A stretch of 64,000 bases of DNA from Bacteroidota bacterium (GCA_040385525.1 JAZKHE010000002.1:969786-1033785), one strand, 5' to 3'. Positions 34,106 to 64,000 are shown, counted from the stretch's first letter. Notes: a model not told the origin generated them from the letters alone. Numbers and translations: made by a program.

Positions 34106-34219
34106 TGTGTTTATTTTGTTACAAATTTACTAGATTTAATAAAACTAACTAAATATTTGTGAAAGGCTTATCTACTTTGAATTTAATCTATTATTATTGT
34201 AGTTGAAAATTATACAAGA

Positions 34220-35038: not shown

Positions 35039-35082
35039 ATGTTAGCAAACTTTTTAAACTAACGTTTCTGTTTAGTATACTA

Positions 35083-35463
35083 TTATTTTTTCTTGTTTAA
35101 CACATATAGCATTGCTGAAGAAATTGTACACATAACCAAAGCGCTTACAATTAGTGAATTTTCTTTTTGAGAAATCCCAATAAATAAATCGCCAACAAAC
35201 ATTACAAAAAAGAAAATGTAAGTAATGCTTAGCATAGGTATTGATTTTTTAAAAGTAGCATAGGCAAAAATAAAACCAAGTGCAAATTGACGTGTAGCCC
35301 AAATGTTAGCTAAATAAATAACTCCTTCAGCATTAAAATCTACTGTTTCTAAAACCGATTCTGGAGCAATAAATAAAGATATACTCACCATTATTTCGAG
35401 CAATGCAAAAATACCCGATACAATAAGTATCCATTTTGGCAATGATTTTTGAGTTTCTGTCAT
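35083..35463 (-). CDS. Small 4-TM membrane protein
   Basis: Four hydrophobic helices; WATRQFALG. Confidence 0.72.
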   Translation of the reverse strand: MTETQKSLPKWILIVSGIFALLEIMVSISLFIAPESVLETVDFNAEGVIYLANIWATRQFALGFIFAYATFKKSIPMLSITYIFFFVMFVGDLFIGISQKENSLIVSALVMCTISSAMLYVLNKKK

Positions 35464-35479
35464 ATTTGATTTTTAGAAT

Positions 35480-36922: not shown

Positions 36923-36937
36923 GTTAGTAAAAAAATA

Positions 36938-37966: not shown

Positions 37967-37990
37967 AAATTTTGTTTAAAAACAAGTTTA

Positions 37991-37998
37991 CAAATATA
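37991..37998 (-). promoter_or_regulatory. Bacteroidota -7 element (TATATTTG) upstream of wzz
   Basis: TAnnTTTG 24 nt upstream of the start. Confidence 0.5.
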
Positions 37999-38006
37999 GC
38001 AAAACG

Positions 38007-39449: not shown

Positions 39450-39500
39450 AACTAAATCAGGCTGCAAAAATAACCAAATATGTTAATTTTATTGCATTTA

Positions 39501-40241
39501 CTATGCTTTAGAATGCGGTAAAAATAAAAAATTCTGACTTTTACCCGTAATTGGCTTGTCTAAATTAAATTTTTGCCAGGAATTAGTATTGAAATAATGA
39601 GCGGTGTAGCCTAAATTAGTTAAAAAATCAATGCTGTTTTTACGATTTTCATTATCCCATAATTCAACATACAAAATAGGTTTATTGCGCTCTATGGTTA
39701 GCTTTGCGCCCAATAATACTTCGTATTCAAAATTTTCAACATCAATTTTAATGGCTGTAATTAGCTGATTTTTATAGCTTTCAACATCATCAAGCTTTTT
39801 AACATCGATTGTGTAGCTTATTGCATTTTTGGTGTCTGTTTCCTTAATATTGGCGAGTCCTTGCATGGTTACATTATTTTGTACAGGCACATAAATAGTT
39901 GTTTTTTCGTTTGAATTGCCCAATGCAAATTTTTCGAGCACAACGTTGTTCAATTTAAAGTATTTACAAACCTTTTCAAAAGCAGTTTGATTAAATGGAA
40001 CAGGTTCGAAACCAATAATTTTAGAATCTGGAAATTGTTTAGCAAAATGAACACTTATAATGCCAATATTAGCCCCAACATCAAGAATTAATCCTTTTTT
40101 GGTAATTTTTCCGAAAATAGAAAATAGTGGCTTTTCGTAGGCATCCCATTTTAAAAATTTAATTTTAAGTACCGAAAACCAAAACAAATAGTTTTGGAAA
40201 CCTAGGGTGCGTTGCAGTATTAATTTTAAAAAGCTTTTCAT
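39501..40241 (-). CDS. FkbM-family methyltransferase
   Basis: LDVGANIG, FEP, KIDVENFE; preferred start MKSFLK at 40241 with TACTTTTG at 40260-40253. Confidence 0.9.
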   Translation of the reverse strand: MKSFLKLILQRTLGFQNYLFWFSVLKIKFLKWDAYEKPLFSIFGKITKKGLILDVGANIGIISVHFAKQFPDSKIIGFEPVPFNQTAFEKVCKYFKLNNVVLEKFALGNSNEKTTIYVPVQNNVTMQGLANIKETDTKNAISYTIDVKKLDDVESYKNQLITAIKIDVENFEYEVLLGAKLTIERNKPILYVELWDNENRKNSIDFLTNLGYTAHYFNTNSWQKFNLDKPITGKSQNFLFLPHSKA

Positions 40242-40300
40242 TTTATAAAGGGCAAAAGTAATAGTTTTTAGTAATTTAGATTTTTTAAAACTCAAATTAC

Positions 40301-41434
40301 TTGAAAATTGCTGTAAATACCCGCTTATTGTTACCAAACCGAATTGATGGTATTGCGCGATTTACCTTTGAAACGCTCAAGTTAATTACTCAAAAGTATC
40401 CTGAGCACCAGTTTTATTTCTTTTTTGACCGACCATTTAGCGATGAATTTATTTTTTCAGAAAACATAATTCCAATTGTAATTGGACCTCAAGCCCGACA
40501 TCCATTTTTATTTTATTGGTGGTTTGAGTTTTCGATTTCAAAGCAGTTAAAAAAAATTAAACCCGATTTATTTTTGTCGCCAGATGGTTTTTTGAGTTTG
40601 AACACAAACGTTAAATCGTTGCCAGTAATTCACGATATTAATTTTGTTCACTATAAAAAAAATATACCTTGGTTGGTAAGCAAATATTATAATTATTTCT
40701 TCCCTAAATTTGCAAAAAAAGCAAGTAGAATTGTTACTGTGTCGAATTTTTCTGCTAAAGATATTTCAATGAATTTTGGAATTGATAGCAATAAAATTGA
40801 TGTTGTTTTTAATGGTGTGAGCGATATTTTTAAACCGATTAACGACGAATTAATTAAACAAAATACAAGACAAAAATACAGCGAATCAAAACAGTTTTTT
40901 ATTGCTGTAAGTTCAATTCATCCGCGAAAAAATATTGCAGGTTTACTAAAAGCGTTTAATCAATTTAAAACTGAAAGTAATAACGAACATAAATTAATTT
41001 TAGTAGGAGATAGTTATTTTTGGGATAAGGAAATGACAGAGCAATTAAAGCAAATGGACTTTAAAAAAGATGTTGTTTTTACAGGAAAAATAAATGACGA
41101 AGAATTGGCAAAACTAATGGCATCAGCAAGTGCAATGCTATACGTTCCTTTTTTTGAAGGTTTTGGAATTCCTATTTTAGAAGCTTTTAAAAGTGAAATC
41201 CCAGTAATATCTTCTAACACAAGCTCATTGCCCGAAGTGTATGGCGATGCTGCTTTGGCAGTAAATCCTTCGTCTACAAACGAAATTGCAGAAGCAATGC
41301 AAAACATTGTAAACAACAACGAATTAAGAAATAATTTAGTAGAAAAAGGAAAAATACAACTTCAAAAATACTCCTGGCAAAAAACAGCCGATTTACTTTG
41401 GCAATCTATGCTTAAAACAATAAATAATGCTTAA
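40301..41434 (+). CDS. Glycosyltransferase family 4
   Basis: VIHD, HPRKN, EGFGIPILEA, SSLPEV; TTG start. Confidence 0.93.
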   Translation: MKIAVNTRLLLPNRIDGIARFTFETLKLITQKYPEHQFYFFFDRPFSDEFIFSENIIPIVIGPQARHPFLFYWWFEFSISKQLKKIKPDLFLSPDGFLSLNTNVKSLPVIHDINFVHYKKNIPWLVSKYYNYFFPKFAKKASRIVTVSNFSAKDISMNFGIDSNKIDVVFNGVSDIFKPINDELIKQNTRQKYSESKQFFIAVSSIHPRKNIAGLLKAFNQFKTESNNEHKLILVGDSYFWDKEMTEQLKQMDFKKDVVFTGKINDEELAKLMASASAMLYVPFFEGFGIPILEAFKSEIPVISSNTSSLPEVYGDAALAVNPSSTNEIAEAMQNIVNNNELRNNLVEKGKIQLQKYSWQKTADLLWQSMLKTINNA

Positions 41435-50839: not shown

Positions 50840-51412
50840 TTAAATTTTCGATTCAATATAATGAATTAAAGAATGAATTATTTTAATGTGAATTTCTTGT
50901 GCTCTATCTGCAAATTCAGAATGAGGTGCACGAATTTCTATGTCGCATAATTTAGCAATTTCGCCACCTGTTTTTCCAGTAAGGGCAACTGTTTTTATTC
51001 CATTTTTTTTTGCAGCATGTATTGCTTCAATAACGTTTTTAGAATTTCCGCTGGTGCTAATTGCTAATAGTACATCTCCTTTTCTGCCAAGCGCTTCAAT
51101 GTATCGCGAAAAAATTTTATCAAAACCGTAATCGTTGCCAACACAAGTAATGTGCGATGCGTCAGAAATTGAAACAGCAGCTAAAGCTTTTCTGTCGTTT
51201 CTAAATCGACCACTTAATTCTTCTGCAAAATGCATGGCATCGCACATAGAACCTCCATTACCACACGAAATTATTTTGCCACCATTTTGTAATGAATCAA
51301 TCATTAAAAGGGCAGCGTCTTCTATTTTTTTTAGATTGGCATCGTTTTTGTAAAATTCTTCAAGTAATTGATTGGCTTCTTGAAAATTATTTTGAATCAA
51401 ACTTATTGACAT
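50840..51412 (-). CDS. gmhA: Phosphoheptose (sedoheptulose-7-phosphate) isomerase
   Basis: [32 protein letters not shown]; preferred start MSISL at 51412 with TACTTTTG at 51438-51431. Confidence 0.95.
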
Positions 51413-51543
51413 ATTGCTAAACTTATTAACCAAAAGTAAGTATTTTACTTTATTTATAGGATTGAATATTTGATTTTTATATAAATTGTTATAAATTTAC
51501 ATCAACAATGCTAAATAAACATAATTTTAAATTGGTAAAACCG

Positions 51544-52026
51544 ATGATTAAAAAGGCTTTTTTTGTTACAGCATTAGCTCTATTCTTTGCTAATTACGTT
51601 AGTGCTCAATCTACTACAGTTACTGCTGGTTCGGGCAAAGGTTCTGATACTCAAACAGGTGATTTAAATTGTTTTCAACGTTATGAAAAAGCGTTTAAAG
51701 AAAGAGGTGCTAAGTTAATTGATGATGGCCAGCACGATAATGTTGTAATTACTGTTCGTAAAGGTAATGAATGTGAGTGCTTAACTGGTAAAGTATTAAT
51801 TGAATACGGTGCTGTTATAAAAACTTACGTTAAAATGGAAGACGGTAAATACGAAGAGTTGAATAAAAAGTTTAAAACAGGTTTAGGCGATATTTATGTT
51901 TTTAATGGAATATCAAAAACGAGAACTACAATTGATAGTGAACTAATAAATGTAGTTTTTGTAGATAAAATAAATCCTAAAAAAGCTAACTACGTTAAAG
52001 CGCCAGATGTTCCAAAAGATTTTTAA
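51544..52026 (+). CDS. Exported hypothetical protein
   Basis: Preferred start MIKKAFF; signal peptide ending VSA-Q. Confidence 0.75.
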   Translation: MIKKAFFVTALALFFANYVSAQSTTVTAGSGKGSDTQTGDLNCFQRYEKAFKERGAKLIDDGQHDNVVITVRKGNECECLTGKVLIEYGAVIKTYVKMEDGKYEELNKKFKTGLGDIYVFNGISKTRTTIDSELINVVFVDKINPKKANYVKAPDVPKDF

Positions 52027-52050
52027 TAAACTTCTCATATAAAGTAATTT

Positions 52051-52076
52051 AAAAAGAGCTCATTGAGCTCTTTTTT
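52051..52076 (+). terminator. Intrinsic terminator
   Basis: AAAAAGAGCTC-ATT-GAGCTCTTTTTT. Confidence 0.8.
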
Positions 52077-52177
52077 CGTTTTAAAAATAACTTATTATCC
52101 GATAAAATTAGATTTTTTTACGTCTAAATGTTGCGTGTATTGTTTTTTTTTATATTTTTGGTGTAAAATTCAGTACT

Positions 52178-52435
52178 ATGAAAAGTATAGCTTTATTTGT
52201 TTTACTACTATTTGTTTCTTTTTCAAGTGCGTTTTCTCAAGAATTGAAAATGGCTGAGTCAGATTTTGATAAGGCTAAAATGAAAACAAAGCCATCTGAA
52301 AAGATAGTTATTGAAGATTCTTCTAAAAAATCGTACTTAACAAAAAAAACAAACCCAGCTGAAAAATCAGTTGCAAGTTCTGATTCTATAAATGGAACAG
52401 TAATAATTACAGAAAGGAGGAGAGATGAAAAATAA
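52178..52435 (+). CDS. Small exported protein, first gene of the operon
   Basis: Signal peptide ending AFS-Q; TTG-N19-TATTTTTG promoter at 52131-52160; overlaps the next start. Confidence 0.7.
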   Translation: MKSIALFVLLLFVSFSSAFSQELKMAESDFDKAKMKTKPSEKIVIEDSSKKSYLTKKTNPAEKSVASSDSINGTVIITERRRDEK

Positions 52436-54023
52436 ATTTTTAGCATTTCTATTTTTGCTTGTCATTAGTTTATTGTACTCTAAAAGTAGCTTTGCTGCTT
52501 TTTGTACTCCAATCAATGGAGATAGATGTACAAACCCGCTTTCAATGTCAAGAAATTCTTGTCAGGATTTGAATACAACAGCAGCTGATTGTGGTCCAGA
52601 TTATACACAAGCTTCTTACCCTTGTTCTGCTTCTGATAATGATATGTGGGTATCTATTACGCTTACCGCTTGTTCTCATTTAACTTTAACAGCTACAGAA
52701 TCAATCAGTGGTAATGTAAATGTTATGTTGCTTAAAGATTGTAGTACAATTATAGAAAGCGGTTGTGGTTCTGGTGCAGGAGCAGGTGTATCAATAACTG
52801 GTGAATATTTACCAGCAGGAACTTATTTTGCCGTTGTTTCTGGCGCATCTGCCACAGGTACAATAAGGTTATGTAATTCTGTTACTTCTGCAGGTAGTGC
52901 ACCTTCAAACGATGCATGCGGTTCTCCTATAACACTTACAGCTGGTAATGGATATAATGATGATTTAGGTGGAGCAAGTAACGCGCTTACTGGTACAAAT
53001 TTTTGTGCAACAGCAACCAACGTTACAGTTTGTGGAACAGCCAATCAGGACTCTTATACTTATGTAGATATGGCTACATGTTATATTACAAATTATAGTA
53101 ATCCTGGTTTAGAGGGAGCAAATCCTTGTTGGGGGTCTGTTGAAAATAATGTTTGGTATCAATTTACAGCTCCAACAACCGATAATTACTATTTTGAGTT
53201 GTTTAGTCAATCGTGTAATACACCTAATGGAGTTCAGTTTTTAGTCACTACCGTAAAAAATTGCTCAAATGCCGAAGCAACAGCTGGCGGTTTAATGACA
53301 GCTCTTTCTGGTGGCTCTGGTGGCTATGCTTGTACTAGTACCTCTACAACTAATAATATTTATTTAGAAGTTAATTTAACTGCTGGTACTACTTATTATA
53401 TTTCTGTTGATGGTTTTGCTGGTTCTGCATGTAGTTACGAACTTATGGCGGGTATAGTACAAGCAATTCCATTAGCATTAAATGTTAAGTCTTTTACTGG
53501 TAAAAGTGTAGATGGCGGAAATTTAATTGAATGGGTAATTGGCGATTTAAAGGCAACTAAGAGTTATGTTTTAGAAAAATCACACGATGGTATTAACTTT
53601 TCTAATGTGGATGTATTAAAGTCAACAAATTCCGATAAAGGTTCGTTTAAGTTTTTAGATGAAAATGTTGAACATGAAAAAACATACTACAGAGTATCCG
53701 TTTTTGATGATAATAATACATCAAAAGAGAGAACCGAAGTTATTTCTGTAAATAAATCTGATAAAAAAGATATTGCGCTTTTTAGTGTTTATCCAAATCC
53801 ATCAGAAAGCAATGTGACAATTAGTTTTCATTCAGATAACGCAATTGACAAGTTTTTTTATATCTACAATTCAACAGGTAAGTTAGTTAAAGAAATAATT
53901 GTTATACCACAAGTTGGTTTAAACGAATTTGAAATTGAAACTGCTTTGTTTGAAAAAGGAATTTATCAGTTAATACTCGTTTCAACTAATCAAACAGATA
54001 AAATAAAATTTATAAAAAATTAA
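52425..54023 (+). CDS. Cys-rich T9SS cargo protein with PPC-like domains
   Basis: Signal peptide; 18 Cys; NDAC, WYQFTA, LTAGTTYYISVDG; IPL...F.G linker; YPNPS...KFIKN CTD. Confidence 0.85.
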   Translation: MKNKFLAFLFLLVISLLYSKSSFAAFCTPINGDRCTNPLSMSRNSCQDLNTTAADCGPDYTQASYPCSASDNDMWVSITLTACSHLTLTATESISGNVNVMLLKDCSTIIESGCGSGAGAGVSITGEYLPAGTYFAVVSGASATGTIRLCNSVTSAGSAPSNDACGSPITLTAGNGYNDDLGGASNALTGTNFCATATNVTVCGTANQDSYTYVDMATCYITNYSNPGLEGANPCWGSVENNVWYQFTAPTTDNYYFELFSQSCNTPNGVQFLVTTVKNCSNAEATAGGLMTALSGGSGGYACTSTSTTNNIYLEVNLTAGTTYYISVDGFAGSACSYELMAGIVQAIPLALNVKSFTGKSVDGGNLIEWVIGDLKATKSYVLEKSHDGINFSNVDVLKSTNSDKGSFKFLDENVEHEKTYYRVSVFDDNNTSKERTEVISVNKSDKKDIALFSVYPNPSESNVTISFHSDNAIDKFFYIYNSTGKLVKEIIVIPQVGLNEFEIETALFEKGIYQLILVSTNQTDKIKFIKN

Positions 54024-54058
54024 GTGTTAAGTGTAATTTTTAACTTAATTTTAGAAGG

Positions 54059-55618
54059 ATGTTGTTTACATCCTTTTTTTATGTTTTAATTTTTAAAGTG
54101 AAAGCCAATTACTCAAACGTTGCATTTATTATAGGAGGTGTTTCAGTTTCAACGGAATTGCTTTGCTATCAGCTTCTGCAACCATTCGCTGGAAACTCTT
54201 TTTTTATTTGGTTGATAACATTATCGTTTACATTAATTGGAATGTTGTTGGGGTATTATTCTACTTATAATAAAAATACAACAGTTGAATCTTTGCCAAA
54301 GTATATTTGTATTGCATTGTTTTTTTATTTTGCATCAACTTATATTACAAAACAAATAATCTATAAATTTTATACCTTAGATTATAGATTATTAAGCGCA
54401 ATAATTGCATTGTTTTTTGTAATTCCAGTTTCATTTTATTTAACTAAAATAACTCCAATACTTGTTTCGGTATCAAAAAAAAATGAGGAACAAAAAAATG
54501 TTGGTAATCTCTTTTTATTATCTACAATTGGTGCGGCAACTTTTATTTTAGTTACGGGTGTAGTTTTAATACCCTATTTTGGTTTTTTAACTTCTAAATT
54601 TCTATTAAGTGTATGTTTATTAATTTGTGTATTTGTATGTTATAAAATTTCAAAATCTAAAAGTAAATTGTATATTTATTTAGGCATGTTAATTGTTTTT
54701 TTTCAGCTTTTAGAAGTTATAGTAAGTAAAAAACAAATGGTTGCAAATTCAACTATAGAATACGCATCAAGTAGTATATTGGGGCAAATGCAGGTAATTA
54801 ATAATGGTAAAGCAAAAATGTTGGTTGTTAATAGTATGCTCCAATCAACTGATAATATAAACGAAGATTTTTCGACATTCCCATACGTACATTTTATTTC
54901 TTACGTATCTTCTTTGTATCCAGAAAAATCTAATATTCTTTTAGGTGGAGTTGGTTCTGGTAGTTTAATTAAAGAATTTATTAAACTAAAATTAAATGTA
55001 ACCGCTGTTGATATTGATAAAAGAATGTTTGATGTTGCCGAAGAAAATTTTAATTTAAATAGAGAATTGTATGATTTTTATGTGGATGATTTTAGACATT
55101 TTTTAAATAAAACAAAAAATAAATATGATGTTGTTGTTCTTGATATAAGTATAGGAGAGAGCCAACCAGCGCATTTATATACTGTTGAGAGTTTTTCGAA
55201 AATTAAAGATTGTTTAACCGAAAACGGAATTGTATTAATTCATTATGTTGCAGATACAAAAAGTAAAAGTTTTTGTTCATTATATAACACAATTTTAGAA
55301 TCGGGTATGCAAAGTAAAGTGTATTCAACTAATGAATATTCAAATTCAGACTTGGTTTTAGTTGTAACAAAAAATAATTTAAATAAATACTTAAATGCTA
55401 ATCAGTTTAGAAAAAATGATAGGCATGTAGAAGCGCTTAAAATTGCGAATTTTTATAATAAGCCTAAATCTGATTTTAATTGCGCAAATGCAATTATTTT
55501 TACCGACAATAACCCCGTTTTAGATATTTTGCACCAGGAATTTGTTATAGAAACAAGAACAAATACGCTTAAAAATGTACCAACTTTAAAGGTTAATAAT
55601 TTAATTGGATATGAATAA
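54059..55618 (+). CDS. Fused half-MFS / spermidine-synthase-fold SAM transferase
   Basis: About 7 TM helices, then LLGGVGSGSL, VDID, DDFRHFL, YDVVVLD, FTDNNP; start may be GTG 54098. Confidence 0.85.
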   Translation: MLFTSFFYVLIFKVKANYSNVAFIIGGVSVSTELLCYQLLQPFAGNSFFIWLITLSFTLIGMLLGYYSTYNKNTTVESLPKYICIALFFYFASTYITKQIIYKFYTLDYRLLSAIIALFFVIPVSFYLTKITPILVSVSKKNEEQKNVGNLFLLSTIGAATFILVTGVVLIPYFGFLTSKFLLSVCLLICVFVCYKISKSKSKLYIYLGMLIVFFQLLEVIVSKKQMVANSTIEYASSSILGQMQVINNGKAKMLVVNSMLQSTDNINEDFSTFPYVHFISYVSSLYPEKSNILLGGVGSGSLIKEFIKLKLNVTAVDIDKRMFDVAEENFNLNRELYDFYVDDFRHFLNKTKNKYDVVVLDISIGESQPAHLYTVESFSKIKDCLTENGIVLIHYVADTKSKSFCSLYNTILESGMQSKVYSTNEYSNSDLVLVVTKNNLNKYLNANQFRKNDRHVEALKIANFYNKPKSDFNCANAIIFTDNNPVLDILHQEFVIETRTNTLKNVPTLKVNNLIGYE

Positions 55619-57140
55619 AAATAAATTGATTTTTATTTTGCTGTTTATAGAAGGATTCCTTTTGTCCTGTATTGAATTAGCCTATTCTAAATATTCAAAT
55701 TCGTTTTTTGGAAATTCGCTTTATAACTGGAGTTTTATAATTGGCTTAACAATGTTTTTTTTAGTAATTGGATATTTGTTAAGCTTAACAAAATTTGTAA
55801 TTAATTTTTATTCTAAAATAGAAAATGTATTGTTGGTGTTTTCGTTAATCTGTGTAATTACTTTTTCATTATTTTCGTTACACGAAGTTTTGTTTTTAAA
55901 AATCTATAGTTTATTTCAGCATGTTTTAGCATCTTCTTTTGCGTCAGCTTTTTTGTTTTTAAGCTTGCCTATTTCAATAATAGCAACTATTCCAACAACA
56001 ATAACGTTTCATTTATCAAAGCAAAAAAATGATTTACAATCAAAAACAGGGAACACTTTTTTTGTTTCAACCTTAGGAGGGATTTTTGGCGCAATACTAT
56101 TTGGCGTTTTTATTTTACCCAACTTAGGCTATTTTAATGGCTATAAAGTTCTTTCTATTTCTGTATTGATTTTTGTTTGTATCACTTTGTTGTATTTAAA
56201 GAAATTTAAAGTATTTACGTTGTCGTTAGTTTTTTTGGTGTTAGTTTTTTTGAAAGAAAATGCAATTGCTAATACAGATATAATTTACGAATCAGAAGGA
56301 TTGTTAGGGAAAATACAAGTGGTTAACTACAGAGGGGTTTTAGGAAAAATTGAAGGGAGACAATTAATTTGTAATAATTCAATTCAAACATGGATTGACA
56401 CCAAAACTGGAAACTCCTTAGGCAAATATCCTTATATAATTGAAAGTATAATTCAAGAAAGAAAAAGCGGTAATCAAATTGCAAAAACAGGCTTAGTGCT
56501 TGGTTTGGGCGGAGGAACAATAAGTTATATTTTAGAAAAAAATAATATTAAATGCTATAGTGTTGAGCTTGATAAAAGAATAGCTGAGGTTTCTAAAAAA
56601 TATTTTTACAACTTTAAAAACAATGAAATTATTATTAATGATGCCAGAAAATATTTGAATACTGATAATAAAACATACGACGTTATAGTTTCTGATGTAT
56701 TTATTAGTGAAAATCCTCCCTATCATATTTTAACTTTAGAATCTTTTCAATTAATTAAAAATAGATTGTCACAAAATGGAATTTATATAATTAATTTTAA
56801 CGGTTACATACAAGGAAAAGATGGTTTAGTAGGACGAAGTTTGGTTAAAACACTTAAAAAATCAGGTTTTCAAGTTAGATGCATTGTTGGCTCAGATGAT
56901 CAAGAAACTAGAAACAATATTTATATCTGTTATAAATCTGATGAAGATTTTAAAACTTCTACAATTGAAAACACTTTAAAAATAAATAATGTAAGTGAAT
57001 TTGATTTGAATACAATTCAGCTAAATGATAGTTATGTGTTTACAGATAATGATCCTGTTTTAGAACTAATTAATTCTAAATCGGCAGTTAATTGGAGAAA
57101 ACATTCAATAGAATATTTAAAAAATAATTATGAAAAATAA
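55605..57140 (+). CDS. Fused half-MFS / spermidine-synthase-fold SAM transferase
   Basis: About 7 TM helices, then LVLGLGGG, VELD, DARKYL, YDVIVSDVF, PYHILTLE, FTDNDP. Confidence 0.88.
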   Translation: MDMNKNKLIFILLFIEGFLLSCIELAYSKYSNSFFGNSLYNWSFIIGLTMFFLVIGYLLSLTKFVINFYSKIENVLLVFSLICVITFSLFSLHEVLFLKIYSLFQHVLASSFASAFLFLSLPISIIATIPTTITFHLSKQKNDLQSKTGNTFFVSTLGGIFGAILFGVFILPNLGYFNGYKVLSISVLIFVCITLLYLKKFKVFTLSLVFLVLVFLKENAIANTDIIYESEGLLGKIQVVNYRGVLGKIEGRQLICNNSIQTWIDTKTGNSLGKYPYIIESIIQERKSGNQIAKTGLVLGLGGGTISYILEKNNIKCYSVELDKRIAEVSKKYFYNFKNNEIIINDARKYLNTDNKTYDVIVSDVFISENPPYHILTLESFQLIKNRLSQNGIYIINFNGYIQGKDGLVGRSLVKTLKKSGFQVRCIVGSDDQETRNNIYICYKSDEDFKTSTIENTLKINNVSEFDLNTIQLNDSYVFTDNDPVLELINSKSAVNWRKHSIEYLKNNYEK

Positions 57141-57723
57141 TAAATTATTTTTAATCACATCTTTTATAGAAGGTGGTACATTGTTAGCAACAGAGCTAAT
57201 AAGTGCTAAAGCAGTTGCTCCATATTATGGAACATCAATAGTTGTTTGGGCTTTGGTTTTATCAATTACATTATTAGGTTTAGCAATTGGCTACTATTTA
57301 GGTGGTAAATATACTGTTAACGAGTTTTCGAATAAGCCATTGTTAATTGTTTTTGGAGCAGCCATAGTTTTAAATTTAATTTCTCCATTTCTATCAAAAG
57401 CAATAATGCAAATGCTAATTAATTTTGATTTGGGAATAGCTGTATTCATTTCTTTACTAATTTTTTTGGCGCCATTAATGATAGTTTACGGAATGATTTC
57501 GCCAATGATTGTTGGTAAATTGCAGTTGTTTAATACAACACAAAATAATGTGGGTTTAGTTTTTAGTGTGTCAACTTTTGGAGGAGTTTTGTTTTGTTTT
57601 TTGTATGGACTTTATGTAATTCCTTTTTGGGGATTAAATGAAGCTTATTTTTTAAACGCAGTATTGCTTTTATTTTGTTTACCAATTTTTGTTTTTGGAA
57701 AAACTACTACAATTAAAAATTAA
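57130..57723 (+). CDS. Stand-alone 6-TM half-MFS domain paralogous to the two upstream proteins
   Basis: FIEGG...EL...PYYGTS..VW...L...GLAIGYY and FSVSTFGG motifs. Confidence 0.82.
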   Translation: MKNNKLFLITSFIEGGTLLATELISAKAVAPYYGTSIVVWALVLSITLLGLAIGYYLGGKYTVNEFSNKPLLIVFGAAIVLNLISPFLSKAIMQMLINFDLGIAVFISLLIFLAPLMIVYGMISPMIVGKLQLFNTTQNNVGLVFSVSTFGGVLFCFLYGLYVIPFWGLNEAYFLNAVLLLFCLPIFVFGKTTTIKN

Positions 57724-58331
57724 TTATATGCAGGGCATTCGGTTTTACCTCTGTTGTTACTTTTAAATCCTTTTCGTTTTTTGCCTTTAAATCCACCTTT
57801 CGAAGAACCACCACCTTTGCATCCAAAAAAATAGACTAAACCTGTGTGTAATAAAAATGCTTCTTGTCGAACAGCATAACGAGGCTCAACATAACCTTTT
57901 AAACAATTGTTTCCTATAAAAGCACCAAAACCAGCTTCGCCATCAGCTTTTATTCCGCCACTTGCACTTGCATTTTGATTGCCAGAAGCGCCATTGTTAT
58001 TTGCTGCAACAGAACCCGATGCTTTAACACTTGCACTACCTTTTATTGTGCCAGAAGCAATTGCATAAAAATTTAAAAAACGGTATTCGTAAAAAGGAAC
58101 AAGTGCAGAAACTCCACCTAAAAATTTACCTTCATGAAAATAATAATAACCATAAGGAACAGCGTAAAGTTTTTTTGTAACAGGAATTAAAACTCTAGCG
58201 CTTAAACCTAAATAACCATTTTTAGTATTGTATAACGTTCCGCCACCTGCTCCAAAACCTTCTTGACCAAAACTAATTTTGAATTGAATAACGATTAGTA
58301 TGAATATTAATAAACTATTTTTGAGTTTCAT
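57720..58331 (-). CDS. Small OM beta-barrel with Gly/Lys-rich, Cys-bracketed C-terminal tail
   Basis: Signal peptide; strands ending TGLVYFF; tail GCKGGG...KTECPAYN. Confidence 0.65.
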   Translation of the reverse strand: MKLKNSLLIFILIVIQFKISFGQEGFGAGGGTLYNTKNGYLGLSARVLIPVTKKLYAVPYGYYYFHEGKFLGGVSALVPFYEYRFLNFYAIASGTIKGSASVKASGSVAANNNGASGNQNASASGGIKADGEAGFGAFIGNNCLKGYVEPRYAVRQEAFLLHTGLVYFFGCKGGGSSKGGFKGKKRKGFKSNNRGKTECPAYN

Positions 58332-58370
58332 TCTTGTTATTTAACAACGAAAGATAAAACATTTTGTTAT

Positions 58371-58474
58371 AAGATACAAGAACTAAGATTTAAGAATCAA
58401 GACCCAAGATGGAATTTTCTATTTTACTAATTCACAAATTCTCCAACTCACTAATTCACCAAATCTCTAATTTC
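58371..58474. repeat. Phased short repeats: 6x AAGAnnn then 6x 8-mer (CTAATTCA-like)
   Basis: 58371-58412: AAGATAC AAGAACT AAGATTT AAGAATC AAGACCC AAGATGG; 58427-58474: CTAATTCA CAAATTCT CCAACTCA CTAATTCA CCAAATCT CTAATTTC. Confidence 0.8.
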
Positions 58475-59476
58475 TTATCTCACCATCTCAGCAATAGCGT
58501 CAACCCATGTATCGTTGCTGTTTAAACTTTCAACTAGTTGCACTTTTTCGCCGCCATGCTCTCTAAAAATAGCGTTGTATTCGTGCCCAATTTCTATGGT
58601 TGTTTCTAAACAATCTGCTGTAAATGCTGGGCTAAAAACTAATAATTTTTTCATCCCTTTTTTAGCTAATTCTTCAACAATTTTATCAGAAAAAGGTTCT
58701 ATCCATTTTTGATTTAAGCGCGATTGAAAACCAACCGTATATTTACTTTCGGGAATATTTAATTGTTTAGCAATTAAGCGCGTTGTTTCGTAACAAGTTG
58801 CTTTGTAACAAAATTTATTTTCTTCGGTAATTTCGTTTTCGCAGTTATGGTCGCTACAAGGAGAATCTTCGTAAACTTTATCAACTTGTCTTACGGGTAA
58901 ACCATGATAACTAAAAAGTACGTGATCGTATTCTCCAAATTTATATTGTTTACCTCTTTCAACAAATGAATTTATATATCCTTTATCATCATAATATTGA
59001 CTAATAATGCGTAGTTCGGGTATTACATACCATTTACTAATAATTTGCATTATTTTTTCTAAAGACGAACCTGTGCTCGATGAAGCGTAATGAGGATAAA
59101 GAGGAAAAACAATTATTTTATGAAAATTCTTTGTTCTAATTTCTTCTAAAACACTTTCTAAAGAAGGGTTTTGATAACGCATACCAAAAAAAACTTCGTG
59201 CGTATTAGCTAATTTTTTTTGTAATTTTTTTTGTAAATCAAGTCCGTGAAGTAGGAGAGGAGAACCTTCTTCTGTCCAGAGTTCTTTATAGATTTTAGCA
59301 GATTTTGGAGCTCTAAAAGGAACAATTAAACCATTTACTAAAAAAAAACGTCCAATTGGGTTAATATCAATTACGCGTGAGTCGTTTAAAAATTGAGTTA
59401 AATATTTTCTAACATCAGATGTTGAAGGGCTATCAGGTGTACCTAAATTTACTAAAAGTAAAGCTGTTTTGTTCAT
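58475..59476 (-). CDS. hemH: Ferrochelatase
   Basis: LVNLGTP, GSPL, MRY, PLYPHY, FSYHGLP, FQSR, DCLET; TAACTTTG promoter at 59507-59500. Confidence 0.97.
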   Translation of the reverse strand: MNKTALLLVNLGTPDSPSTSDVRKYLTQFLNDSRVIDINPIGRFFLVNGLIVPFRAPKSAKIYKELWTEEGSPLLLHGLDLQKKLQKKLANTHEVFFGMRYQNPSLESVLEEIRTKNFHKIIVFPLYPHYASSSTGSSLEKIMQIISKWYVIPELRIISQYYDDKGYINSFVERGKQYKFGEYDHVLFSYHGLPVRQVDKVYEDSPCSDHNCENEITEENKFCYKATCYETTRLIAKQLNIPESKYTVGFQSRLNQKWIEPFSDKIVEELAKKGMKKLLVFSPAFTADCLETTIEIGHEYNAIFREHGGEKVQLVESLNSNDTWVDAIAEMVR

Positions 59477-59671: not shown

Positions 59672-62600
59672 ATGCGTTCATTGTTCCAAACTAAGTTTTT
59701 TTATTTTATTGCAGTTTGTTTATTTTCTTTTTCTGCAAAAGCACAATTATCAAGCTATACTTTTTCTCAAGGTATAGAAGGTTATACAGCAATTACAGGA
59801 GGAACTGTTTTGTGGTCGGGTGCCGGAATTGACGATGATCCTGCTGTAAACGTTGCAATACCTAGTTTTAATTTTAATGGAATAAATTACAACAGTTGTT
59901 ATATAACGCCAAATGGTTTTATAACTTTTGGTTCAGAACCAAATACTGTAGAATACAGACCAATTTCATCTTCTGTTTCAACTTATTCGGGAGCTATATC
60001 TGCATTCGGATGGGATTTAGTTTCTTCATCTACAGGTTCGCCAGAAGTAAGATGTCAACAAGTAAACGAAGAATTTATTATTCAATGGCAAGATTTTAAA
60101 AGAAATTCTATAAGTACAATCGAAAAAATTAGTTTTCAAATAAAGTTAAATTCGTTAACCAATGTAATAAAAATTGTTTATGGTGGTTCCATCTTCCCAA
60201 CAAATAATACAACATATCCACAAGTTGGTATTAGAGGTGCTTCTAATTCAAATTTTAGAAACCGTAAAGTTGTTGCTGCTACAGGCATTTGGTTAAATTC
60301 AACCGAAGGAACTTTAAATAACGATAATTGTTATTTTAACTCCGTTAATTCTGGTACAGTTCCAATTAGTGGTTTAACTTTTATTTGGACAGCTCCATGT
60401 GTAAATGCAAGTATACCTTATTCAATTAATTTTGATGATGTTGAACCATATAATATACCAAATTGTACATCTATTCAAGATTTAAATGGCGCTAATACTT
60501 GGAATGTTGAAGAAGCTCCAACTGATACCATTTGTTTTAATGGAAATGTTTTGGCTTATAATTGGGATGGATCTACTCCTGGAGATGATTGGTTTTTTTC
60601 TAAAGGAATAAGTTTAACAGCTGGTAGTACTTATACTTTGCAATATGTTTATGGCGCTTACGATGTAGGTTTTCCTGAAAGTATGGAGGTTAAATTTGGT
60701 TTATCTGCAACACCAGTAGCAATGACTAACTCAATTGCATCGCACCCATTAATTGAAAGCCGTTTTGAACAAGTAGAAGTTAATTTTTCTCCAGCCTCAA
60801 CAGGAGTTTACCACTTAGGATTTCACGCAAACTCAGATCCTGATATGTATAACCTTTATTTAGATGATATTTTATTATCTAATTATACACCATGCACAAA
60901 ACCAACAAGTTTATCTGCTTATAATGCAAACACAACAAGTGTTGTAGTTAGTTTTACTGCTGGTGGTTCAGAAACAGAATGGCAAATTGAATATGGTGTT
61001 GCTCCTTACGTTTTTACAGGACTATCAATGGCAACTTTTACTTCAAATACATTTACTTTAACAGGGCTAAATCCTGGTACAAAATATCAATTTAAAGTAA
61101 GAGGAAATTGTGGTGCAAGTAAAAGTTTATGGACAAGATTACAGAATTTCATAACACCTTGTAATCCAACAACAACATTACCTTTAGCTCAAAGTTTCGA
61201 TAATAGCCAATTTCCTGCGTGTTGGTCGGCTAGCTTAATTTCTGGGGAAGATGGTTGGGAAGTTAAAAATTTTGATTCAGGAATCTCAGCTCCAAAAAGT
61301 GGAACCAATTTTATTGGAAAAACAAATACTGATTCTGAAGCCTTATTAATCAGTCCACCATTAAATTTAAATGGATTAGGTGCTACTCCAGTTCAAATAA
61401 GTTCATGGTTGTATAGAAGCTCTACAAGTGATGTTAACGATAAAATTACTTTTTACGTAAATAACTCGAGCAACTTAACTGGGGCAGTTCAACTTCTTGA
61501 AATCTTTACTAATATTGGTGTTGCGCCAACAGTTGGCACTGATGGATGGTATAATTATAAAGTTACAATTCCTACATCATACAACACTAATGGAACGTTT
61601 TATGTTATAGCTAAAGGTTCTACTAGCGCAGATGCAGCTTCTAACGCTTTGGGTATTGATGAGTTTAGATTGGAGTTAGTTGCTAGTTTAGATATTCAAG
61701 CAAATACTTTTATTAATCCAAGCACTGTAGGTTGTTATAGTAGTTCAGAAAATGTTTCGGTTGTTGTAGAAAACGTAGGTAACACTTTAATTAATTTTGC
61801 TACAAACAATTTAGTTTTAAATGCAAATGTAACAGGTACAACAGCAAGTACAATTACAACAACAATAAATTCGGGAACATTAGCAGCTGGTGCTTTAGCA
61901 ACCTATTCTGTTGGAAACGCAAATATGCTTGCCGTTGGTAATTATTTTATTAGTGGGAGTGCAAATTTAAGTGGAGATTTATCAACATCAAATAATACAT
62001 TTGAAACTGCAATAAGAGAAAAATTTTCAACTTATGCTTTACCATACACTGAAACATTTAACTCATACACAAACTTAAGCGATGCACCAATTTGGAATGG
62101 TAATGGCGACTGGATTGTTGCAGATAATCAAGGAACAGCTGGAACAAAATCGTACATAACTCAAGTGAATTTAAGTTTTCCGCAAGCTACAACAATTACT
62201 AAATTTAATTTAGGAACAGTAACTTCTGCAACTTCATTAACACTTGATTATAGAATTGTAGATGAACACGATTTAAGTTCGGCTCCAAGTGCTGCAACTA
62301 CTTTAGTTGCTGGAGATTTTATTAAAATTAGTTTATCAACAGATTGTGGTGCATCTTACACATTGTTTCATACCATCAACAATGGTAATCACACCCCATC
62401 TTTAAGTTTTACTAATAAAAATCTTTCATTAGCAGCATATGCTGGGCAAAATATACAATTTAAAATTGAAGTACAGTCTGGAGGTTCAAACGATTTTTAT
62501 TTTAATATGGATAATTTTAATGTTGTTCAACCACTTGATAACAATGCAAATTTATCTAATTTAGTTTCTAGTCAAGGTTCTCTTAATCCAACATTTGCTT

Positions 62601-64000
62601 CTGGCACTACAAATTACACTGTAACTCTACCAATTGGGTCTTCTGGTAGTGCTATACTAACGCCAACTTTAGCATCATCTTTATCAATTACATCATCCAA
62701 CACTTCTGCATCAAATGTTGCTGGTAATCCTCCAACAAATATTGCATCAGTTGTTGTTATGGCGCAAACAGGAGCTACTCAAACTTACACTGTAACGTAC
62801 AATGTTATAACGTTAAACTCAAATTCTTCGCTTTCTAATTTAACAACAAGTGTTGGTTCTTTTACATTTTCTTTTGCACCAGGTATTTATAATTACACAG
62901 TTAATTTGCCTACAGGTACAACAGGCACTGCTAGTTTAACTCCAACTTTAGCAACAACGCTTTCTACAATAACTTCTAACACAAGTGCAACAGATGTTGG
63001 TGGAACTGCACCTGCAAATATTGCTACAGTAGTTGTAACAGCCGAAAACGGATCAACAAGTACTTATACTGTAACTTACAACACTAGTCCGTTAAATTCT
63101 AATTCAAGTTTAGCAACATTAGTTCCTAATAGAGGAGATTTAGTACCAACATTTTCACCATCAACTTTTAACTATACTGTAACTCTACCTTTTGGTTCAA
63201 CAGGTTCTGATAATTTATCGGCAACGGTTGCTAGTTCTTTATCAGTAATTAGTTCTAATGTGGCGGCAAGTAATGTAGCCAATAATAATGGTGTAGATAA
63301 TGTTGCAACTGTTGTTGTAACTGCACAAGATGCATCAACAAGTACTTATACAGTAACTTATACTGTTGAAGCTGGTAACACCAATTCAAGTTTAACGGCT
63401 TTAACTTCAAGTGTAGGAACAATAAGTCCAGTGTTTGCATCATCTACTTTTAGCTACACAGTAACATTGCCAATAGGTTCTTCTGGCTCAGCTACTTTAA
63501 CACCAACACTAGCAACAACTTTATCTACAATAACATCAAACGTAAGTGCAAGTAATGTTAATGGTTCAGCACCTAATAATACAGCCTATGTAATTGTAAC
63601 TGCTCAAACAGGTGCAACATCAACTTATACTGTTGTGTACAATGTTGTTCAACCAAGTACTGATGCTACATTGGCTACATTAACATCAAATATTGGAAGT
63701 TTTACAACAACATTTAATCCTAGTGTTTTAAGTTATACTGTTGTTGTTCCGCAAGGCACAACTGGAGCCTCAATAATTTCGGCTACAGCAGTTTCTACAT
63801 CTGCAAATGTTACAATTACGCAAGCAACAGATGTGTCGGGCGCTGCACCTGCAAACGTTGCGACAGTTGTTGTTACAGCGCAAGATGGAACTACAATTTT
63901 AACTTACACTATAACTTATAGTTTTGCTAGCGGTTTAAATGAGTTAAATAAAGGCAATATACAAGTTGAGGTTTATCCAAATCCTGTAATTAATAAAGTA
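59672..64000 (+). CDS. Large T9SS-secreted surface protein/adhesin (partial, >=1443 aa; not in ORF track)
   Basis: ATG 59672 MRSLFQTKFFYFIAVCLFSFSAKA-Q; same frame at the window end (EVYPNPVINKV, start of the T9SS CTD); PNGFITF, DDWFFS (cleaved-adhesin-like), fn3-like WQIEYG...GLNPGTKYQFKVR. I spot-checked the frame rather than every codon. Confidence 0.88.
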   Translation, partial: MRSLFQTKFFYFIAVCLFSFSAKAQLSSYTFSQGIEGYTAITGGTVLWSGAGIDDDPAVNVAIPSFNFNGINYNSCYITPNGFITFGSEPNTVEYRPISSSVSTYSGAISAFGWDLVSSSTGSPEVRCQQVNEEFIIQWQDFKRNSISTIEKISFQIKLNSLTNVIKIVYGGSIFPTNNTTYPQVGIRGASNSNFRNRKVVAATGIWLNSTEGTLNNDNCYFNSVNSGTVPISGLTFIWTAPCVNASIPYSINFDDVEPYNIPNCTSIQDLNGANTWNVEEAPTDTICFNGNVLAYNWDGSTPGDDWFFSKGISLTAGSTYTLQYVYGAYDVGFPESMEVKFGLSATPVAMTNSIASHPLIESRFEQVEVNFSPASTGVYHLGFHANSDPDMYNLYLDDILLSNYTPCTKPTSLSAYNANTTSVVVSFTAGGSETEWQIEYGVAPYVFTGLSMATFTSNTFTLTGLNPGTKYQFKVRGNCGASKSLWTRLQNFITPCNPTTTLPLAQSFDNSQFPACWSASLISGEDGWEVKNFDSGISAPKSGTNFIGKTNTDSEALLISPPLNLNGLGATPVQISSWLYRSSTSDVNDKITFYVNNSSNLTGAVQLLEIFTNIGVAPTVGTDGWYNYKVTIPTSYNTNGTFYVIAKGSTSADAASNALGIDEFRLELVASLDIQANTFINPSTVGCYSSSENVSVVVENVGNTLINFATNNLVLNANVTGTTASTITTTINSGTLAAGALATYSVGNANMLAVGNYFISGSANLSGDLSTSNNTFETAIREKFSTYALPYTETFNSYTNLSDAPIWNGNGDWIVADNQGTAGTKSYITQVNLSFPQATTITKFNLGTVTSATSLTLDYRIVDEHDLSSAPSAATTLVAGDFIKISLSTDCGASYTLFHTINNGNHTPSLSFTNKNLSLAAYAGQNIQFKIEVQSGGSNDFYFNMDNFNVVQPLDNNANLSNLVSSQGSLNPTFASGTTNYTVTLPIGSSGSAILTPTLASSLSITSSNTSASNVAGNPPTNIASVVVMAQTGATQTYTVTYNVITLNSNSSLSNLTTSVGSFTFSFAPGIYNYTVNLPTGTTGTASLTPTLATTLSTITSNTSATDVGGTAPANIATVVVTAENGSTSTYTVTYNTSPLNSNSSLATLVPNRGDLVPTFSPSTFNYTVTLPFGSTGSDNLSATVASSLSVISSNVAASNVANNNGVDNVATVVVTAQDASTSTYTVTYTVEAGNTNSSLTALTSSVGTISPVFASSTFSYTVTLPIGSSGSATLTPTLATTLSTITSNVSASNVNGSAPNNTAYVIVTAQTGATSTYTVVYNVVQPSTDATLATLTSNIGSFTTTFNPSVLSYTVVVPQGTTGASIISATAVSTSANVTITQATDVSGAAPANVATVVVTAQDGTTILTYTITYSFASGLNELNKGNIQVEVYPNPVINKV
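62537..63934 (+). repeat. Five ~93-aa cadherin-like beta-sandwich coding repeats
   Basis: Units begin near 62537, 62816, 63095, 63377 and 63656; pattern (N/S)xLxxL...F....xYTVxLP...A.VVVTAQ.G.T.TYTV.Y. Confidence 0.85.

Follow-up and report, generated by a model that had tools for sequence, protein, structure and literature searches.

The window, by which we mean the whole analysed stretch of 64,000 nt from a Bacteroidota bacterium (GCA_040385525.1, JAZKHE010000002.1:969786-1033785), contains the locus described here, which consists of five co-oriented open reading frames, g1 to g5 (Table 1). Their frames overlap at the g1/g2, g3/g4 and g4/g5 junctions, and in this our ORF calls agree with an earlier interpretation made from the DNA alone (the sequence-only reading), which had described five same-strand genes with overlapping junctions and had taken them for one operon with its own promoter. 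From its ATG (54059) g3 would encode 519 aa and from an in-frame GTG at 54098 506 aa, the N-terminus resulting from the latter aligning with those of g4 and g5. g4 starts within the end of g3 and has 511 aa if translation begins at the TTG and 509 aa if it begins at an ATG in position 55611, and g5, the start of which overlaps the end of g4, stops directly after TM6.

Table 1: Features of the locus, with positions counted from the first letter of the window.
Feature	Position	Strand	Description
terminator-like hairpin	52051..52075	+	11-bp stem, -13.6 kcal/mol, z -3.88
candidate promoter	52153..52160	+	TATTTTTG, TAnnTTTG match, 18 nt 5' of g1 ATG
g1	52178..52435	+	85 aa, predicted small exported protein
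g2	52425..54023	+	532 aa, 18 Cys, predicted T9SS type A cargo
terminator-like hairpin + T-run	54053..54077	+	10 bp, -11.2 kcal/mol, z -3.38
g3	54059..55618	+	half-MFS (6 TM) + TM7 + spermidine-synthase-fold domain
g4	55605..57140	+	half-MFS (6 TM) + TM7 + spermidine-synthase-fold domain
g5	57130..57723	+	stand-alone 6-helix half-MFS, 197 aa

It is nevertheless doubtful whether all five genes form one operon, because a terminator-like hairpin stands between g2 and g3. None of 200 shuffled sequences folded equally well, and the ATG of g3 falls inside its 5' arm. The other hairpin sits 3' of the upstream gene (51508-52026) and marks the 5' boundary of a unit starting with g1. For the promoter claimed earlier we found one match to TAnnTTTG, which we take to be the Bacteroidetes -7 element, and this match and the upstream hairpin are the sole evidence; as 0.88 such matches per kb occur in the window the motif counts as weak promoter evidence, and a g1 promoter at 52153 is possible. 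We prefer to read the locus as two adjacent units, g1-g2 and g3-g4-g5, of which the second encodes a split NF037959 machine, and assign this reading, jointly with the mechanism proposed below, a probability of roughly 45%.

The first unit would encode a Cys-rich cargo of T9SS type A and, ahead of it, a small protein destined for export, much as had been suggested before for these two genes. g1 has a hydrophobic N-terminus followed by a K/S/E-rich region and gave no match in a family search; in other loci related cargo genes come after small proteins of 87-128 aa with a signal peptide, which need not be homologous to g1. g2 possesses a hydrophobic N-terminus with a signal peptide and, at residues 455-532 (nt 53787-54020), the C-terminal sorting domain of T9SS type A cargo (TIGR04183, 41.3 bits with the cut-off at 23; PF18962, 34.4 bits with the cut-off at 27), and the count of its Cys residues was correct in the sequence-only reading. 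Its N-terminal region, which found only three non-self matches in a word-based search, leads to PF23759 and PF04151 (PPC / GBD_T9SS_assoc-like). Hence signal peptide, TIGR04183 domain and these leads are as in T9SS type A cargo with PPC / GBD_T9SS_assoc, from which g2 differs in its 18 Cys and in that no enzyme domain was recognised in it.

All three membrane genes exceed the curated cut-off of 40 bits for NF037959 ("fused MFS/spermidine synthase"), with 95.9 bits for g3, 104.2 for g4 and 45.4 for g5, which covers only positions 4-180 of the 480 in the profile. g3 and g4 have the membrane-plus-PF01564 layout of this family in one chain, with PF01564 behind seven hydrophobic helices, and g5 consists of the membrane part with its six helices alone. 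The locus is distinct from NF037959 in having two fused proteins together with one stand-alone half, and in the unusual divergence of the g3 and g4 membrane parts. These domains are paralogous to each other and to that of g5 (pairwise E-values 2e-35, 3e-11 and 1e-19) and share 28 invariant columns including FI.G, EL, G.S, W, GY and ST.G. The GC content of g3-g5 (0.257-0.281) is lower than the gene mean of 0.314 (sd 0.027), giving them ranks 3-5 of 52, with a GC3 of 0.169-0.191 compared to a mean of 0.214 (sd 0.040); since the low GC is located at codon positions 1 and 2, it reflects amino-acid composition and is no sign of foreign origin. Thus two proteins of about seven TM with a spermidine-synthase fold, a lone 6-TM paralogue, common membrane motifs and a higher AT content than in other genes, all proposed previously, could be confirmed. 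Our literature search found nothing relevant on the function of any NF037959 member.

Although PF07690 is carried by some relatives, no MFS_1 Pfam match at E <= 0.01 was obtained for g3-g5, and the assignment of the membrane parts as half-MFS bundles comes from structure. For the AF2 model of g5 (pLDDT 89.3) every Foldseek match listed is an MFS transporter with about half of the target aligned (TMq 0.40-0.73, E-values of 3e-3 or weaker), and the model can be superposed on a single 6-helix half of proteins such as PepTSt, FLVCR1/2, VMAT2 and MdfA. In contrast to these transporters with twelve helices in one chain, g3, g4 and g5 hold one 6-helix bundle each and therefore only half a transporter per chain. 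Two membrane domains are present in all 51 homologues of 700-800 aa, and the single-chain relatives of ~745 aa are built from 6 TM, again 6 TM, 1 TM and the catalytic domain. With an HMM of the first half g5 reaches 141 bits and with that of the second half 105 bits, and a clear preference for the first half was also seen in four of the five other lone halves tested, being only slight in P0125 and P0129. From the best 149 non-self matches of g5, 37 have a length of 185-215 aa and 35 of these begin with M. Lone halves of 188-203 aa terminate at the same point as g5, and such stand-alone halves of ~200 aa form a recurrent family distributed over many 50%-identity clusters. As g5 is similar to the first half found in the ~745-aa chains and lone halves recur, g3-g4-g5 looks like a split form of the architecture of these chains within the widespread NF037959 family, and the existence of both two-half single chains and lone halves makes it reasonable to infer that the half-bundles pair.

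The catalytic domain shows the fold of polyamine aminopropyltransferases. All Foldseek PDB matches listed for the AF2 model of g4 (pLDDT 85.2) are spermidine, spermine or thermospermine synthases, with 3gjy as the best one (TMt 0.73), and the two-domain fold of N-terminal beta-hairpin and Rossmann domain is like that of SpeE (PF01564; TIGR00417; PDB 1uir, 3anx, 3gjy, 1inl). The G-rich loop, the ribose-binding acid (VE.D), the adenine-binding Asp, DD.R and the first catalytic Asp (YD....D, D364 in g4) are kept in the family. One conceivable function would be that of an ordinary polyamine aminopropyltransferase anchored to the membrane, with cytoplasmic domains using dcSAM for spermidine or a related polyamine and an MFS part exporting or importing the polyamine; g3 and g4 pass PF01564, the closest solved structures, judged by sequence as well as by fold, are such enzymes, and relatives are labelled 'spermidine synthase' by the sources. 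However, both proteins stay far below the cut-offs of the SpeE equivalog TIGR00417 (50.8 bits for g3 and 37.5 for g4; cut-off 249.55) and of the membrane-type polyamine aminopropyltransferase PRK03612 (NF002956; 59 and 41.9 bits; cut-off 472), and of the three residues binding the aminopropyl amine two have clearly been lost. Where SpeE has an acidic residue in GGG(D/E)G, g3 has a Ser and the family consensus a Gly, while it is absent from g4. From the two Asp of D..D(P) the first, which in SpeE deprotonates the amine, is kept and invariant (D364 in g4, D362 in g3), while the second, which in SpeE binds the substrate, is missing. Inspecting the alignment by eye, we saw no counterpart of the third residue, Gln79. 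Different from SpeE, the family has an invariant Glu five residues past the catalytic Asp (E369.PP in g4 numbering).

According to PMC3725402, the loop Asp binds the aminopropyl amine and is thought to repel the carboxylate of SAM, and a D103I exchange abolished the spermidine synthase activity and led to a gain of methyltransferase activity; the roles of the other active-site residues are assigned in PMC6514230, which also covers the acid in GGG(D/E)G. In PMC3725402 plant putrescine N-methyltransferase is described, which has a spermidine-synthase fold with the loop Asp replaced and has switched from dcSAM to SAM. The plant enzyme is soluble and has no membrane part, and the likeness is an analogy in residue pattern and not a membership. 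As the residues for adenosyl binding and a catalytic Asp are kept while those specific for dcSAM are gone, ordinary spermidine synthesis by the g3 and g4 domains is unlikely.

The predicted orientation in the membrane also argues against a cytoplasmic polyamine enzyme. In 35 aligned homologues the N-terminus and the even loops contain on average 8.54 K+R compared to 1.66 in the odd loops, and the inside count is higher than the outside one in each of the 35 sequences (10 vs 2 for g4, 9 vs 1 for g3), which places the catalytic domain outside. In all five long forms examined a central loop of 41-46 residues with 6-14 K/R is found, which would have to be periplasmic if the domain were cytoplasmic; a K/R loop of 3-5 residues, one more hydrophobic helix and the catalytic domain follow. 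TM7 is short with a mean of 16.7 residues, and corresponds to a helix at 201-215 in the g4 model with pLDDT down to 63. Hydropathy and charge (the positive-inside rule) are the basis of this prediction, according to which the catalytic domains probably face the periplasm, and the 7-TM topology with an inside N-terminus and an outward domain considered in the sequence-only reading fits both the 35 sequences and the five long forms. Being membrane-tethered and predicted to be periplasmic also sets g3 and g4 apart from SpeE, and taken as a whole we regard an ordinary polyamine aminopropyltransferase at this locus as very improbable. SAM and dcSAM are not known to occur in the periplasm. A lead on topology, and no more than that, comes from an Atlas cluster of the same fold, 93% of whose members have a Peptidase_M28 domain at the C-terminus; M28 peptidases are usually extracytoplasmic.

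The three paralogues differ strongly in conservation. g5 is the best conserved of the membrane domains and keeps 28 of 36 conserved columns, compared to only 19 and 20 in g3 and g4, and in the tree the g3 and g4 domains are located on branches of ~10 changes per column versus 0.55 for g5, with those of g3 and g5 being sisters at a support of 86/91, which is below the starred threshold of the tree tool. In the catalytic domain g4 retains 45 of 49 conserved columns and g3 33, so that 16 are gone in this more divergent paralogue, and the best non-self identity of g4 is only 36%. These long branches could be due to decay rather than function, and together with the sister relationship and the lack of any lone half in 43 related loci they would agree with a lineage-specific duplication under relaxed selection, rather than with a machine designed in three parts; only g4 would then be catalytic, with g3 as a pseudo-enzyme or scaffold and g5 either the conserved part still working in the membrane or a remnant. 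On the other side, the ORFs of g3, g4 and g5 are all intact and overlapping, g3 has lost none of the columns invariant in all 35 sequences, D362 and E367 among them, many 50%-identity clusters contain lone halves of equal length, and part of the branch length may come from AT-driven composition and model saturation. We consider such a decay improbable and keep the split NF037959 machine as our preferred reading of g3-g5.

In order to judge the link to T9SS cargo we used the neighbourhoods of 43 related Bacteroidota loci. Type A CTD genes are enriched directly upstream of the fused gene, with 13/76 at positions -1/-2 and 13/440 elsewhere, and after collapsing at 60% identity such a gene is present there in four of nine groups. 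Within three genes of the fused gene the effect is modest and about two-fold, with T9SS CTD genes accounting for 22/218 compared to 14/298 (odds ratio 2.28, p = 0.022 with kinship ignored), and 23 of the 43 loci have no such gene at this distance. In nine loci (L006, L009, L016, L018, L023, L024, L036, L040 and L041) the upstream Cys-rich cargo has 20-35 Cys and is a homologue of g2 adjoining the fused gene, preceded by a small signal-peptide protein. This enrichment, the adjacency of g1-g5 on one strand and a predicted periplasmic domain that could meet the cargo in transit would be compatible with a dedicated operon, transcribed as one five-gene unit, in which a g3-g5 complex modifies g2 or g1 on the way to T9SS. 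However, besides the hairpin between g2 and g3, the cargo module lies on the opposite strand in these nine loci, their close relatives keep the fused gene without the module, and the cargo near other fused genes is of unrelated types, the types overall being Cys-rich, beta-propeller and SprB-repeat. One relative shares g2 at 81% identity, and protein searches gave no orthologue from it above 36% identity for g4 and 43% for g5. Moreover, the NF037959-type family is also found in Pseudomonadota, Verrucomicrobiota, Actinomycetota, Bacillota and archaea, and some phyla with this architecture are not known to have a T9SS. The cargo linkage of the sequence-only reading is seen as an upstream enrichment with variable cargo, and as the 43 loci contain no lone half the g3-g4-g5 trio is not a conserved arrangement among them. 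A dedicated cargo-modification operon, the sequence-only reading in its strong form, has a low likelihood in our view, and a working link between the split transferase and g2 is possible.

Returning to the two-unit locus with a split NF037959 machine, g5 would stand in for the first half of the ~745-aa relatives, which lacks a catalytic domain, and the paired half-bundles would form an MFS-like unit of twelve helices. The seventh helix would place the transferase domain at the periplasmic face, where it would bind an adenosyl cofactor, and the MFS part may carry the cofactor or the acceptor over the inner membrane, with export of the cofactor by this part being pure inference. As the domain is no canonical dcSAM-dependent aminopropyltransferase, it would most likely transfer a methyl or another SAM-derived group to an extracytoplasmic acceptor, for which the neighbouring T9SS cargo, envelope glycans or lipids are candidates.

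A more far-reaching proposal, which we see as unlikely, would be that the whole NF037959 family represents extracytoplasmic SAM-dependent alkyltransferases supplied with SAM or a derivative by a 12-helix MFS part, either in a single chain or as paired halves such as g5 with g3 or g4, which would pass it straight to a transferase domain at the outer face of the inner membrane, and recruited in Bacteroidota for the modification of exported T9SS cargo or adhesins. According to the textbook, nucleotide-cofactor chemistry ends at the cytoplasmic membrane, and an alkyltransferase with its own cofactor supply would, if true, break this rule. Structure-level look-alikes of ~470-580 aa were found in many phyla, in agreement with the earlier statement that fused MFS/spermidine-synthase proteins are widespread, and in one of the Bacteroidota loci (L010) the fused gene is flanked by CHU_C cargo genes.

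The membrane genes g3, g4 and g5 represent a new arrangement of a known, uncharacterised family, the fused MFS/spermidine synthases (NCBIfam NF037959): g3 and g4 each encode a half-MFS bundle, a seventh helix (TM7) and a spermidine-synthase-fold domain, and g5 encodes a stand-alone half-MFS protein. All three exceed the curated NF037959 cut-off of 40 bits (g3 95.9, g4 104.2 and g5 45.4 bits), with g5 covering only positions 4–180 of the 480 in the profile. Both g3 and g4 pass PF01564 and fail the SpeE equivalog (50.8 and 37.5 bits, cut-off 249.55) as well as PRK03612 (59 and 41.9 bits, cut-off 472). Over their full length g3 and g4 are 27% identical (E 2e-35), while g5 shows 32% identity to g3 (E 1e-19) and 28% to g4 (E 3e-11). 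Their membrane parts are paralogues with 28 invariant columns, and these contain the shared motifs named in the sequence-only reading. The ORF list also confirmed five co-oriented genes with overlapping frames at g1/g2, g3/g4 and g4/g5, the first two encoding a small exported protein (g1) and a T9SS type A cargo (g2).

Open reading frames of the locus
Gene	Position	Strand	Product
g1	52178-52435	+	ORF, 85 aa
g2	52425-54023	+	ORF, 532 aa
g3	54059-55618	+	ORF, 519 aa
g4	55605-57140	+	ORF, 511 aa
g5	57130-57723	+	ORF, 197 aa

The suspected AT-richness of the membrane genes was borne out, as the GC content of g3–g5 is 0.257–0.281 compared to a gene mean of 0.314 (ranks 3–5 among the 52 genes of the window). 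Their GC3 is 0.169–0.191 (window mean 0.214, sd 0.040), with g4 and g5 less than 1 sd from the mean and g3 slightly more than 1 sd below it. The deficit lies mainly in codon positions 1 and 2 and therefore reflects amino-acid composition; given the ordinary GC3, we rejected a foreign origin. Convergent with g5 and overlapping its stop by 4 nt is a gene (57720-58331, minus strand) for a protein of 203 aa whose N-terminus is hydrophobic and whose tail is rich in G and K; no family was found for it in Pfam or NCBIfam.

The five genes had been proposed to form one operon with its own promoter, of which the co-orientation and the overlaps stand. A terminator-like hairpin follows the gene upstream of g1 (52051-52075), and 18 nt 5' of g1 we found a match to TAnnTTTG, which we take to be the Bacteroidetes -7 element; such matches are common, however (0.88 per kb), and a scan for sigma-70-type promoters performed no better than shuffled sequence (33 found, 40.1 expected). 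A second hairpin (54053-54077; -11.2 kcal/mol, z -3.38), with a stem of 10 bp and a T-run behind it, lies between g2 and g3, and none of 200 shuffles folded as well. As this terminator-like hairpin separates g2 from g3, we prefer to divide the locus into two units, g1-g2 and g3-g4-g5, between which read-through is possible. The ATG of g3 sits inside the 5' arm of the hairpin, and an in-frame GTG at 54098 gives an N-terminus (MKANYS...) that aligns with those of g4 and g5. An Rfam scan of 51000-59000 (E <= 1) revealed no riboswitch or other family, the sole match being a chance snoRNA model.

The AF2 model of g4 (pLDDT 85.2, pTM 0.85, 35-row alignment) shows seven helices followed by a beta-hairpin domain and a Rossmann domain, and its listed Foldseek matches in the PDB are all polyamine aminopropyltransferases, namely spermidine, spermine and thermospermine synthases (best 3gjy, TMt 0.73). 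The g5 model (pLDDT 89.3) superposes on one half of MFS transporters (PepTSt, FLVCR1/2, VMAT2, MdfA) with TMq 0.40-0.73 and TMt ~0.22-0.37 at E-values of only 3e-3 or weaker, supporting the proposed half-MFS nature of the membrane parts. Homologues of g4 occur in forms of ~500 aa and ~745 aa, and all 51 homologues of 700-800 aa possess two membrane domains. The five long forms examined consist of 6 TM, a loop of 41-46 residues with 6-14 K/R, another 6 TM, a K/R loop of 3-5 residues, one further helix and the catalytic domain. g5 scores higher with an HMM of the first half (141 bits) than of the second (105 bits); the same preference is clear in the lone halves P0122, P0124 and P0128 and slight in P0125 and P0129. 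Among 1.84 billion representatives 4880 matched g5 at E <= 0.001, and of its best 149 non-self matches 37 are 185-215 aa long (35 of them starting with M), 68 are 471-560 aa and 12 exceed 690 aa. Eight clusters of lone halves (188-203 aa, ~40% identity) have the same C-terminal end as g5, and stand-alone half-MFS proteins are thus a real family. Probably the half-bundles pair, so that g5 together with a fused protein would mimic the long form. A complex prediction for g5 with the membrane parts of g3 and g4 gave a score of 0.00 (mark 0.32), which is no evidence on binding in either direction.

With helix boundaries set on a 35-sequence alignment, the mean number of K+R is 8.54 in the N-terminus and loops 2-3, 4-5 and 6-7 versus 1.66 in the remaining loops, and inside exceeds outside in 35/35 sequences (10 versus 2 in g4, 9 versus 1 in g3). 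An N-terminus inside followed by seven helices would place the catalytic domain in the periplasm, and the basic loop between the two halves of the long forms is consistent with this. Thus, the suggested orientation is supported as a prediction, and hydropathy and charge indicate that the catalytic domains of g3 (residues ~226-519) and g4 (~223-511) probably face the periplasm. A caveat on this prediction is the shortness of TM7 (mean 16.7 residues). g5 terminates after TM6 with a short basic tail, which fits TM7 being a mere linker that carries the enzyme across the membrane.

To the active site the family contributes a conserved G-rich loop GLGGGT, VE.D.R, DD.R and YD....D (D364 in g4 numbering) as well as an invariant E369.PP. 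Compared with Thermus SpeE, g3 has a Ser in place of the acidic residue of the GGGEG loop and g4 lacks this residue; both also lack the second Asp of the D..DP motif. According to PMC3725402, the loop Asp, Gln79 and Asp173 hold the aminopropyl amine of dcSAM, the loop Asp is presumed to repel the carboxylate of SAM, and a D103I exchange abolished spermidine synthase activity and conferred methyltransferase activity; the ribose Glu, adenine Asp and deprotonating Asp are assigned in PMC6514230. Set against these roles, the residue pattern indicates that the adenosyl cofactor site is conserved in the family and the dcSAM specificity is not. We therefore favour a SAM-type methyl or other alkyl transferase for the putative activity of the catalytic domains, and residue pattern and predicted topology together argue against the annotated spermidine synthase function of the family.

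The two fused paralogues are not equally conserved. From 49 catalytic columns conserved to at least 90% in 33 homologues g4 keeps 45 and g3 33, and from 36 membrane columns g4 keeps 20, g3 19 and g5 28. In the membrane-domain tree the branches of g3 and g4 amount to ~10 changes per column and that of g5 to 0.55; g5 appears as sister to g3 with a support of 86/91, a value below the starred threshold of the tool and subject to long-branch caveats. On these grounds g3 may be a partner that has diverged or has in part degenerated.

As noted initially, g2 contains 18 Cys, and it carries a T9SS type A sorting domain, matched by TIGR04183 (41.3 bits, cut-off 23) and PF18962 (34.4 bits, cut-off 27) at residues 455-532. 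Its N-terminal region has few relatives (3 non-self matches), with PF23759 (GBD_T9SS_assoc) and PF04151 (PPC) as leads; no enzyme domain was found in g2 and no internal repeat in this region was significant by BLAST. By its features, g2 resembles a surface or binding protein. A genome scan seeded with a 12-sequence alignment gave 43 related loci, mostly from Vicingaceae and Flavobacteriales MAGs. In L006, L009, L016, L018, L023, L024, L036, L040 and L041 a g2-like Cys-rich cargo (20-35 Cys) is encoded just upstream of the fused gene on the opposite strand, usually after a small signal-peptide protein of 87-128 aa. The best match to g2 is the L018 cargo (residues 8-524 of g2, 26% identity, E 4e-33). 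g1 had no BLAST match at 1e-3 to the small proteins of other loci and aligned with them at only 19-32% identity in low-complexity sequence.

Using our own HMM for the type A C-terminal sorting domain (CTD), we found such genes at 13/76 of positions -1/-2 of the fused gene, 13/440 of all other positions and 0/76 of positions +1/+2, and at -1/-2 in 4/9 groups after collapsing at 60% identity. Counting type A and CHU_C CTDs, 22/218 genes within three of the fused gene carry one versus 14/298 farther away (odds ratio 2.28, p = 0.022, uncorrected for relatedness), corresponding to 20/43 loci. Thus, the expected recurrence of T9SS cargo stands as an enrichment at -1/-2, but the cargo type is variable, with beta-propeller proteins in L014 and L025, SprB-repeat CHU_C giants on both sides in L010 and CHU_C giants at +3 in 5/6 loci of the L034-L043 group (L034, L035, L038, L039, L043), and none of the 43 loci contains a lone half. 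Tandem fused pairs occur in six (L004, L018, L021, L023, L027, L031). Against a working cargo link, DinB, Rho and DUF4199, plainly of unrelated function, are conserved equally well downstream in Vicingaceae, the cargo module is present in some close relatives and absent from others, and a relative with an 81%-identical g2 yielded no g4 or g5 orthologue in protein searches. The fused family is also common in phyla that are not known to possess a T9SS (Atlas). We regard a functional link between the fused family and T9SS cargo as no more than a possibility.

L034, L035, L037, L038, L039 and L043 mostly share a distinct neighbourhood with an ECF sigma factor, a 570-607-aa unknown protein and a 136-217-aa secreted protein (usually ~203-217) upstream, and a convergent small OMP-like protein, a short-chain dehydrogenase and a CHU_C giant cargo downstream. 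Their ~203-aa upstream neighbours were considered as lone halves and rejected as secreted soluble proteins, and the OMP-like proteins show no similarity to the convergent neighbour of g5. In L040 (10028-11502, 287+206 aa) and L043 (10001-11486, 402+97 aa) two ORFs stand in place of an intact fused gene, which may be due to a frameshift or an assembly error.

The most interesting point, a SAM-fold enzyme that is predicted to face outward and is tethered to an MFS unit of its own, applies to the family as a whole, which is large, spans bacteria and archaea and is routinely annotated as spermidine synthase. The architecture of g4 recurs in many bacterial phyla and archaea (Atlas structure clusters), its closest non-self homologue in a set of 5.8 billion proteins being 36% identical. 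A literature search for this family or for a membrane-bound or periplasmic spermidine synthase found no study; on the mycobacterial membrane-type speE, a passage of PMC11841054 gives only the name speE for Rv2601. The initial observation was largely right, and its interpretation is supported in part: the membrane parts are of half-MFS type, their pairing and the periplasmic orientation of the catalytic domains are probable, and the gene neighbourhood carries some signal. The proposed passage of SAM and modification of the cargo are hypotheses. If the catalytic domain acts outside the cytoplasm, this would be a new way of powering envelope group-transfer chemistry, and a common annotation error in polyamine metabolism would be put right. 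The split trio and the stand-alone half-MFS family offer a natural handle on the assembly of the halves, and the recurrent T9SS cargo neighbourhood a concrete candidate substrate. Among Atlas look-alikes of g4, a 796-aa cluster (commonest phylum Candidatus Roizmaniibacteriota) carries Peptidase_M28 in 93% of its members and a 737-aa cluster (commonest phylum Planctomycetota) carries TPR repeats; these extra domains may hint at extracytoplasmic partners.

Elsewhere in the window, 8832-11798 encodes another T9SS type A cargo of 988 aa, which weakly matches the F510_1955-family glycosylhydrolases. Three genes beyond g5, an open-ended ORF of >1443 aa with fn3 and Cadherin-like domains (59672-64000) runs off the window end; its product is a large surface protein with a C-terminus beyond the window and may represent a further secreted cargo. 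Two patatin-like phospholipase genes are located at 24601-25650 and 25720-28002, the former with weak matches, far below cut-offs, to anti-phage/CBASS-type phospholipase models. A polysaccharide/glycan cluster (31283-41434) contains GT2 and GT4 glycosyltransferases, two FkbM-family methyltransferases, a Methyltransf_24/CmcI-like gene, an O-antigen-ligase-like gene, Wzz and a Polysacc_synt flippase.
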